Origin: Escherichia coli
GTDB lineage: Bacteria; Pseudomonadota; Gammaproteobacteria; Enterobacterales; Enterobacteriaceae
Direction: 5' to 3' (one strand)
Assembly (NCBI RefSeq): GCF_030384885.1
Contig: NZ_CP128614.1
DNA length: 64,000 nucleotides
Positions within the stretch are counted from its first letter, which is position 1. Each line of letters starts with the position of its first letter. The position numbers were made by a program. This document shows, one piece after another, positions 62,201-64,000 of the stretch.

Positions 62201-64000
62201 TTGTTTTTGCACCAGGCTCAAAATCGATATTTTCAGCAACATGATTACCGTACAAAATTCGTATTGTATTTTTATTTGCCCCAAGCGACATAGTCCTTGC
62301 TGCTCGCAATAGAGCATTAGCTTTTGTTTGATCGACCTTTGCCATATTAATAATCCTTTAACATAACTTTATTTGTTAAAGTGTTGAACACATCCTGACG
62401 GTGACTGGTGAACATAGTGTCATAACGTAATAGTTCCATCAAATCATCACTAACTTTTCCTAACCGGATGTCAGCAGACAATTCATAAGCCCAGGCAAAA
62501 ACTTTCGTTTTAAGTGAAACACTCTCTTCAATATGCCCTTGTGAGAAAGCAATTGTACGTGGGAAAAGAACGACATCGTTAATTGTTTTTAACGATGAAT
62601 AACCAATGTCTTTAATAGCATCAGCTGTAGTTGGTTTTAAACCAAAGAAAACACTTACAAACTCTGGTGCGAGCATTGAGATAAAGAACACCTGCATAAA
62701 GTAGTCATTCTGTATATCAACACATTTAGAACGCAACTCATGAATCTTCTTGGGATTATAGATATCCACTGTACCATTCAGAAAAGTCACTTTTTCACCG
62801 GCATCGTAAATACCATAGTCAATATCATTTGTATCATATTCACGAATTACATTGGAATCACCGTCCAAGACCGCAGAAAAAAACCTCTCCCATGTAATTT
62901 CCTTTCCGAGTGTACGCGGAACCAAAAAACTACCTGGACGTGTTTCCACTTCAAAAGCTAAATCAGCGGCTGTACTAAATCCTTTCCCAAATAGGCGACG
63001 CTGGAGAAGAGGAGTCCCAGTTTGATATGCAGAAGATCCATGCACAGGCAATAACATTAAAAATGCACGGTAACTACGAATAAGCGAAATCTCAGTGCGG
63101 AAAAGTTTACCGAGTAAGCTACGAGTTAAATTATCAGATTCTGACATGTGCTGATTGTCCTTGCGCCATTACAATTGTTCAAATCTTCAACATGGATTTT
63201 TTGTTAGGTGTTCGGTAGGGTGAAAAGTAACTTTTAGTATTTTCTTAAGGCTTGAATAAGCCTTAAATCTATCCCTTCAACCACACCGCTTACTTGTAAC
63301 ACTTTTTAACCAAACTGACCAGAATTTTATCAAAATTTCTTCGCATGCTAACGAAATGTGAAGCGATTAAAAAAAAACCTAAATCCAGCCCCTCCCAACG
63401 TTGGATTAGAATAACGACGTCTTTCACTGACCGTCATAAACTGACATTTTTACTTTTCATCAACCTCATGCTTACATAGGATCACTAAACAAAGAAAAGT
63501 GACCCTATGAATACCTCACATAGGGTCACTTATGTTTGAAAAGTGACCCTATGTAATGTCGTCATAGGGTCACTTTTTATAAAAGTGTCACTATGGACAA
63601 AGTTCCATAGGGTCATTTTTTTTGGAAAAGTGGCACTAGATATATGTATAACTTTAATAGAGCAATGCACATTATCAAAAGCAATAATCCACAATGGTCA
63701 TTCCCTCAAAAGTAACTTTAGAGGGTAGCGATGGAAGTGAGGCTAAACTCGCTGTTACTGTTTCTGAAGGCCCCTCCCGAATGGGGGAAACAGCGAGTGC
63801 ATTACATCTGTTCAATTCCCTCATCAAAGAGCATTCAAAAATCTTCTGTTCGTGAAAAAAAACGGAAATTTCCTCCGGTATAGTAATTTCACATCAGGAG
63901 GCGTCATGAGTAATTCGAATCTTATAAGTTCTATAGAGCTAACACGTAAAAATTTACGTGCTCAGATTGAAGGTTTGCGTGTTGAGGCTGAAGATCTCAT

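Follow-up and report, generated by a model that had tools for sequence, protein, structure and literature searches.

Origins of transfer (oriT) lie immediately upstream of mobI in IncA/C, MGIVchHai6 and Rts1, and adjoin mobI in SXT and R27. In IncC plasmids, MobI is essential and confers oriT specificity, and the MOBH1 relaxase is recruited through it (PMC5587640; bioRxiv 10.1101/2025.04.21.649884). IncC MobI self-associates and binds the C-terminal domain of the relaxase TraI, and when this domain is exchanged the relaxase is redirected to a different MobI/oriT pair, with no dependence on the catalytic domain. No MobI-type factor has a DNA site defined in the literature, nor has a nic site been reported for the most thoroughly studied MOBH1 origin, that of IncA/C. 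The IncHI transfer origin, carried by the IncHI2 and IncHI1 plasmids that spread mcr-1, mcr-9, carbapenemase genes and typhoid multidrug resistance, has so far been known only as an intergenic gap of about 760 bp. An array of phased half-sites inside this gap is described here, at positions 63475-63640 of a 64,000-nucleotide stretch of Escherichia coli DNA (contig NZ_CP128614.1; the whole stretch is called "the window"). Very probably the array is genuine and under selection, and serves for protein recognition in the IncHI oriT region. The favoured reading, to which a probability of about 0.55 is given, is that it consists of phased sites for the MobI-family protein TraH, which nucleates the relaxosome.

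The traH-trhR gap of R27 (IncHI1) is homologous to the gap in the window and has the same flanking genes. When cloned, the R27 gap was reportedly mobilised by R27 and hence holds oriT, which is said to have been defined only as the whole intergenic fragment, with binding sites, binder and nic unassigned. Two papers place the R27 oriT beside the MobI-like gene traH, and R27 TraH has been described in recent work as a MobI-like mobilisation factor. In the window, the gap between trhR (minus strand) and traH (plus strand) occupies 63148-63905, or 758 bp, and is assigned as the IncHI oriT region by homology with R27. The array within it is a cis site directly upstream of a MobI-family gene, as traH starts at 63906. 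In this respect it is the same kind of element as other accessory-factor-dependent origins, at a position typical of MOBH1 origins. The oriT region itself was known already; what appears to be undescribed is how the repeats are organised, that this organisation is conserved across lineages, and which protein probably binds them. A search of the open literature, which did not extend to the older papers on the R27 oriT, returned no relevant paper for the strings of the array motif or of the palindrome AAAGTWACTTT discussed below.

The original prediction, made from the sequence of this stretch, described three 31-bp palindromes with degenerate half-sites on either side, recurring about every 43 bp in a divergent gap between the 62347-63147 operon and an open reading frame (ORF) starting at 63907. 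Recurring spaced inverted repeats are indeed present, and the gap is as described except that the ORF starts at 63906. The motif GTGACCCTATG-N9-CATAGGGTCAC occurs exactly twice without mismatch, at 63499-63529 and 63543-63573, and in none of 100 dinucleotide-preserving shuffles of the window. The third palindrome, GTGTCACTATG-N10-CATAGGGTCAT at 63585-63616, is imperfect, having three mismatches overall. The palindrome starts are 44 and 42 bp apart, in agreement with the predicted spacing. The flanking half-sites were also found: the left one, CATAGGATCAC (63475-63485), has one mismatch, and the right one, GTGGCACTAGA (63630-63640), has four, yet is invariant between IncHI1 and IncHI2. What has to be modified is the division into three palindromes, as the repeats are better read as eight alternating half-sites arranged in four units of 33-35 bp. 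A second register, CATAGGGTC-ACTTTT-N3-5-AAAAGT-GACCCTATG, with an outer 9 nucleotides on each side, is equally present.

Unit 1 (63475-63509) reads CATAGGATCAC-TAAACAAAGAAAA-GTGACCCTATG; its left arm is degenerate in IncHI2 and has the canonical form CATAGGGTCACTTTT in IncHI1B. Both outer half-sites of unit 2, CATAGGGTCAC-TTATGTTTGAAAA-GTGACCCTATG (63519-63553), are perfect. Unit 3, CATAGGGTCAC-TTTTTATAAAA-GTGTCACTATG (63563-63595), is only 33 bp long with its half-site centres 22 bp apart, and this shorter spacing recurs at the equivalent position in a diverged locus, L010. Unit 4, CATAGGGTCAT-TTTTTTTGGAAAA-GTGGCACTAGA (63606-63640), has a right arm that is off consensus and is invariant across IncHI1, IncHI2 and a Photorhabdus plasmid. 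The units start 44, 44 and 43 bp apart. The distances between half-site centres are 24, 24, 22 and 24 bp within the units and 20, 20 and 21 bp between them. A generic search of the window for the core (ACTTTT, N3-7, AAAAGT, with at most one mismatch in total) returned units 2, 3 and 4 only, unit 1 being missed because its inner hexamer is degenerate in IncHI2. Similarly, Tandem Repeats Finder reported nothing at the array, because the spacers vary. A known RNA was considered and rejected, Rfam having given only sub-threshold matches to generic hairpins (miRNA precursors) at 15-31 bits compared to gathering cut-offs of 50-440.

A search for the motif elsewhere on the plasmid found no second array. 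Within the 64-kb window, no copy of the half-site with one mismatch or fewer occurs outside the array. On a complete IncHI2 plasmid of 275.8 kb, the array accounts for all four exact half-sites and for six of the nine one-mismatch copies, the remaining three are isolated single matches, and BLAST against this plasmid found no second array either. The "3 places per record" that had suggested a further copy were reverse-strand self-matches of the palindromic array. Exact, mismatch and core searches likewise showed that the motif is absent from the region upstream of the F operon (61240-61832).

About 960 plasmid records keep the last 1.7 kb of the window, in which the array lies, nearly intact. 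The gap of the window was aligned with those of three IncHI1B plasmids, to which it is only about 75% identical overall. In this alignment 93% of the outer half-site positions and 88% of the inner hexamer positions are invariant, as against 28% in the unit centres, 25% in the gaps between units and 33-38% in the flanks. The conservation of half-sites amid drifting spacers is a clear footprint of their sequence-specific recognition. The same eight half-sites are found almost unchanged in IncHI1B-type plasmids. Compared with the window, R478 has one base changed in the array, inside a gap between units. The number of units also varies: the Photorhabdus plasmid has three, and the E. coli plasmid NZ_CP122769.1 (ETEC1738; L024) has an in-register deletion of 90 bp, equivalent to window positions 63491-63580, which joins unit 1 to unit 3 and leaves two units in a plasmid that is typed as conjugative. 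Two IncHI2 plasmids, pHNTS53-1 (L030) and pXDL-CTX-M-14 (L031), have insertion sequences beside an intact array, namely IS1 within trhR and ISKpn26 in the gap just upstream of the trhR start codon; insertions at these places are uninformative on the function of the array.

Diverged MobI homologues were found with the TraH protein, and the DNA upstream of each was then read. The same layout with different outer half-sites is found at seven such loci, although not at every MobI locus. L010, with a MobI 55% identical to TraH, has four units with the outer half-site CATAGTGTY and starts 44-45 bp apart. L014 (MobI 42% identical, a figure from a separate comparison to that used for the other loci) has six units with outer half-site TTATGTTTA and starts 44-45 bp apart, and L015 (40%) has four units with CCTTGTCGC and starts 43-44 bp apart. 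The starts are 55-56 bp apart in the two unit pairs of L016 (38%), where the outer half-sites differ between units. Klebsiella pNDM-MAR-like plasmids (39%) have three units with TTCATTAGT and starts 45 and 56 bp apart, L026 (33%) has three with CATCTCAA at 46 and 57 bp, and L027 (34%) has four with TATACCTG at 55, 55 and 44 bp. The unit layout is kept in L027, but its inner hexamers are mostly ACTAAT/ATTAGT rather than ACTTTT/AAAAGT. Thus the inner ACTTTT/AAAAGT is common to most lineages, whereas the outer 8-9 nucleotides are lineage-specific. The design is absent from L029, a MobI locus with a ParM-like neighbour and GC-rich repeats of 84 bp, and from IncC, which has mixed repeats of the AGATTCCAGAT type.

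Where it was measured (the window, L010 and the Klebsiella plasmids), the distance between half-site centres within a unit is constant at about 24 bp, while in some lineages the distance between units jumps by about 11 bp. This difference favours the CATAGGGTC...GACCCTATG register as the binding unit. The unit periods, 43-46 or 55-57 bp, are one helical turn apart, showing that the helical phase is preserved, as one would expect of units that have to lie on a single face of the helix within some larger complex.

The L014 locus (Logan ERR13348610 contig, positions 1-3345) has its six units at 457-705, one copy of AAAGTAACTTT and mobI at 958-1443. No trhR start is found in the 957 bp upstream of mobI, where all three minus-strand frames are closed, and no relaxase gene (traI) is found downstream within the 3.3-kb contig, where the genes after mobI are small ORFs and one for a 213-residue protein with a weak helix-turn-helix match. 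L014 looks like a minimal IncHI-type mobilisation module made of oriT and mobI. It resembles MGIVchHai6, which has a small oriT directly upstream of its own MobI homologue, mobIM (Rivard et al. 2020, PMC7449626), and in which the oriT-mobIM module suffices for mobilisation by a helper relaxase and secretion system (PMC7449626). With its array and mobI in the absence of trhR and traI, L014 would be the IncHI-type counterpart of that module. The minimal oriT of MGIVchHai6, however, is 49 bp long, IncC-like and lacks a multi-unit phased array. As a separate observation, the Klebsiella pneumoniae rmpA2 virulence plasmid pK204_rmpA2 (L007, 2586-2760) has a lineage-specific array and mobI with no adjoining relaxase gene, and is typed as non-mobilisable. 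A total of 558 plasmid records with a MobI match are typed in this way. Such plasmids may be mobilisable in trans by IncHI-type helpers.

The oriT of IncA/C (IncC) resembles the IncHI2 locus in that it is AT-rich, acts in cis, contains several repeats and directly precedes a gene of the MobI family (Hegyi et al. 2017, PMC5587640). Its repeats are nevertheless of a different kind, being mixed direct and inverted AGATTCCAGATAGAT-like repeats without ACTTTT...AAAAGT units or 44-bp phasing, and neither the 14-bp direct repeats nor the inverted repeats of IncA/C are shared by the array. Membership of the IncA/C-type oriT sequence family was accordingly rejected, the repeats upstream of mobI in pAR060302 being unrelated and devoid of ACTTTT..AAAAGT units. 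The IncC oriT overlaps the mobI promoters, whereas the IncHI2 array ends 265 bp before the traH start codon. The proteins differ too: a pairwise comparison of IncC MobI with TraH gives only a weak match (E = 0.044), and the IncC relaxase belongs to clade MOBH12, the IncHI relaxase to MOBH11.

In the F plasmid (TraM, sbmA-C) and R388 (TrwA), phased oriT sites are bound cooperatively by an oligomeric accessory protein that links oriT to the transfer machinery. TraM and TrwA have ribbon-helix-helix domains and recognise short, closely spaced motifs, whereas the half-sites of the array are 24 bp apart and the TraH model has no such domain. Sites for a ribbon-helix-helix accessory protein of the TraM, TraY or TrwA type were rejected on this ground.

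The original prediction took the repeats to be cooperative sites for a dimeric protein, serving as an operator, a centromere-like site or an oriT-associated site. The general idea of cooperative dimeric or multimeric sites is upheld by the conservation of the half-sites, the helical phase and the change of half-sites from lineage to lineage, and among the three roles it is the oriT-associated one that stands. The remark that no known site matches is still true, as the motif string was not found in any paper. The odds slightly favour TraH/MobI as the protein that binds. MobI is preferred because the site is unique to the trhR-traH gap, whereas TrhR/TrhY and HtdA act plasmid-wide; because L014 has the array and mobI without trhR or a relaxase gene; and because oriT choice in IncC goes with MobI and with the TraI domain that binds it.

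The AlphaFold2 model of TraH is confident, with a mean predicted local distance difference test score of 89.9. Two long antiparallel helices (residues 3-48 and 119-160) enclose a small beta domain. A further, indirect point in favour of MobI is that this central beta/loop domain carries a net charge of +12, with a mean of +9.9 across 34 homologues, while the long helices are near neutral.

Several observations weigh against TraH as the ligand. The model, a coiled-coil hairpin with a small three-stranded beta domain, has no recognised DNA-binding fold. Foldseek matched it only to prefoldin, the V-ATPase stalk and generic coiled coils, none with an E-value below 0.2 and none with a ribbon-helix-helix or helix-turn-helix; the other neighbouring proteins have no Pfam hits. 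MobI proteins are "thought to" bind DNA in the literature, where no member has been shown biochemically to do so. TrhR, TrhY, MobI, the 245-residue ORF and TraI all diverge in parallel across the lineages, so that the lineage-specific half-sites cannot single out MobI, and co-variation had to be abandoned as a test of the binder. The oriT repeats of IncC are quite different and hence provide no transferable model of the site. L014 is a single metagenomic contig of 3.3 kb. Finally, the "oriT" called by oriTfinder on the IncHI2 plasmid pGS32-1 (PMC13055346) converts to approximately 63139-63390 of the window, beside the array, although this is probably merely the best homology segment.

Assuming that TraH is the ligand, the array would be the protein-recognition core of the IncHI2 oriT. 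The units, starting 43-44 bp or about four helical turns apart, all face the same side of the DNA, and dimers or higher multimers of TraH would occupy them cooperatively. The occupied units would then form a phased nucleoprotein scaffold, recruiting the MOBH11 relaxase TraI, which would nick nearby. The outer half-sites CATAGGGTC and GACCCTATG, which are identical in IncHI1 and IncHI2 and different in more distant relatives, would serve as the specificity code. Once single-stranded, the transferred strand may also fold into hairpins at the palindromes. An AT-rich block, TATATGTATAACTT (63641-63654), adjoins unit 4; 70% of its positions are the same in IncHI2 and IncHI1B, and it is loosely kept in distant lineages, for example as TATGTATAAG and GTATGTATTAA. 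To regard it as a candidate region for unwinding or melting, or for nic, is a low-confidence guess, and it is doubtful that a nic site lies beside unit 4.

In a wider and speculative extension, rather unlikely as a whole, MobI proteins would form a novel class of adaptors that bind DNA, each a coiled-coil hairpin ending in a basic beta tip and reading a universal inner AAAAGT and lineage-specific outer 8-9 nucleotides, and a scaffold wrapped on two to six phased units would define the oriT of all IncHI-type (MOBH11) plasmids. If this were true, the outer half-sites would be a readable code for which plasmid mobilises which. The code would predict that IncHI1 and IncHI2 recognise each other's sites, and that Klebsiella virulence plasmids which lack a relaxase but retain the array and mobI are mobilised. 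In addition, through the AAAAGT/ACTTTT core that they share, oriT would be tied to AAAGTWACTTT, coupling the initiation of transfer to global regulation of the plasmid.

The analysis provides exact candidate sites, the structure of the unit and natural variants with two, three, four and six units. Together with the lineage-specific half-sites, which can be swapped, these make recognition of oriT by MobI directly testable. The array rule could also improve the annotation of oriT, current homology-based calls in IncHI2 falling beside the array, and could help to predict which relaxase-less plasmids are mobilised by IncHI helpers.

The strongest of the other explanations, although unlikely, is that the units are single-stranded recognition hairpins for TraI, whose TraI_2 domain cuts and rejoins at a neighbouring nic, with MobI acting through protein contacts only. 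As single-stranded DNA, the array folds with -40 kcal/mol, far better than shuffled controls (z = -8.7). However, the fold ensemble is spread over competing registers, and the best structure represents only 0.17% of it. The closest parallel is the oriT of the gonococcal genetic island, where the MOBH2 relaxase TraI, the only MOBH relaxase characterised in vitro, needs a 32-nucleotide inverted repeat beside nic, similar in size to one unit (PMC6736028). There recognition was demonstrated on single-stranded DNA (PMC6736028) and one repeat suffices, whereas two to six tandem phased copies would be unexpected for such a role, and periods of 44 or 55 bp indicate that the DNA is recognised as a duplex, from one side of the helix. 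Moreover, the choice of oriT in IncC follows MobI and the MobI-binding domain of TraI rather than the catalytic domain, and L014 keeps its array and mobI with no adjoining relaxase gene. A hairpin role for one unit, perhaps unit 4, remains a live option, whether as a rival or as an additional function.

A role for the array in regulating, from upstream, the divergent operons R (trhR-trhY) and H (traH-traI-traG), with TrhR/TrhY or the repressor HtdA as the ligand, is quite unlikely. The array does lie between two divergent tra operons, TrhR/TrhY activate the H operon, and in most of the lineages checked the gene on the other side of the array is TrhR-like and diverges in step with the half-sites. 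Yet the operons activated by TrhR/TrhY include at least F, H, AC and Z, and most genes of the plasmid respond to HtdA, while the motif occurs nowhere else on the plasmid; a box for the TrhR/TrhY regulon was rejected, since the motif is missing from the region upstream of the F operon and from the rest of the plasmid. L014, in addition, has an array without trhR, and AAAGTWACTTT, with its 42 copies mostly in intergenic DNA or at gene starts, would be more plausible as the box of a regulator that acts plasmid-wide.

In an alignment of the whole gap from six sequences, the conserved blocks besides the array are the trhR leader, about 100 bp at 63280-63378, and a stretch immediately preceding traH, with TATAGT at 63879-63884. 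The 63280-63378 block hardly varies among IncHI2, IncHI1B, the Photorhabdus plasmid and L010, and includes CTTACTTGTAACACTTTTTAACCAAACT. It holds the sole conserved match to a consensus promoter, on the minus strand, with a -35 element TTAGCA (63351-63346) and a TG-extended -10 element TAAAAT (63329-63324), and probably serves as the promoter of trhR (R operon). The array lies 124 bp away from this element, ends well short of the traH start codon, and is overlapped by no consensus promoter. A classical operator is unlikely because the array overlaps none of these other conserved blocks or promoter-like elements.

That the sites bind some other protein (the 245-residue ORF product, TraJ or a host factor) and shape the oriT DNA rather than conferring specificity is improbable. 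An ORF of about 220-275 residues lies between mobI and traI in all full loci examined, and the T-tract and A-tract centres of the units suggest bendable DNA. However, the 245-residue ORF is absent from L014 and its product has no family or DNA-binding signature, and a host factor would leave unexplained why the outer half-sites differ between plasmid lineages in the same hosts. A partition centromere, as the original prediction had allowed, or replication iterons have a negligible chance despite the regularly spaced repeats on a large low-copy plasmid, and were rejected from the map and motif scan of the whole 275.8-kb plasmid, for the repeats are inverted rather than direct, their neighbours are transfer genes, and on pSTM6-275 the par and rep loci (parA/parB 14975-17229, parM 20335-21372, rep 1-876 and 261304-262392) are separated from the array, which is at 192 kb, by about 70 to 190 kb, with no copy of the motif near any of them.

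The gene neighbourhood is that of an IncHI transfer region. The last 1.7 kb of the window are 100% identical to hundreds of IncHI2 plasmids, for example pSTM6-275, and the window is, judged by this identity, IncHI2 plasmid DNA. On the minus strand, the order in an annotated record is a trhG-like gene, trhH, a trhF-like gene, a 170-residue ORF and a 266-residue ORF. By position and size, the 266- and 170-residue ORFs correspond to TrhR and TrhY of R27, respectively, and a homologous gene of 265 residues is labelled trhR in one IncHI1B record. On the plus strand the gap is followed by mobI, the 245-residue ORF, a gene for a MobH-family relaxase (traI) and traD (traG), so that relaxase and TraD are annotated two genes downstream of traH; PF07514 (TraI_2) is found at the equivalent position in seven related loci. 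Only the 5' end of traH (63906-64000, plus strand) is in the window, from which the gene exits; its translation matches WP_000071885, a MobI-family protein of 161 residues. TraH matches the Pfam family MobI (PF19456) with an E-value of 2.7e-22 and 79.5 bits, compared to a cut-off of 26.6. NCBIfam gave no match for TraH; the RefSeq annotation nonetheless names it MobI(A/C).

The TrhY-like ORF of 170 residues (61833-62345, minus strand) has a C-terminal CEKC-N14-CPRC, a zinc-ribbon-like motif of four cysteines. Neither it nor the TrhR-like protein has a match in Pfam or NCBIfam. Activation requires TrhY and TrhR jointly. The pair recalls the two-subunit activators of the FlhD/FlhC type, AcaCD in IncA/C and SetCD in SXT.

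The 11-bp palindrome AAAGTWACTTT is dispersed over the plasmid. It occurs six times in the window (48694, 51159, 53252, 60164, 63224 and 63709), compared to 0.8 expected, the last two copies flanking the oriT array. The 275.8-kb plasmid pSTM6-275 has 42 copies, where order-3 Markov simulations give 0.33; among palindromes of this form the second most frequent has 11. According to a comparison with the annotation by hand, 24 of the 42 copies are intergenic and four more are within 40 nucleotides of a start codon; only one is in an accessory segment. The palindrome is unchanged in the gap upstream of mobI in all diverged lineages checked, and shares AAAAGT/ACTTTT with the interior of the array units. 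Possibly it serves as a box for regulation across the whole plasmid, for instance by the TrhR/TrhY-HtdA circuit.

Positions 1-46000 of the window are apparently an accessory resistance region, the conserved IncHI backbone beginning at about 46 kb. This region has at least four copies of a 240-residue ORF (10562, 29634, 40128 and 44501), which are taken as IS26 transposase genes from their size and by analogy with the reference plasmid.

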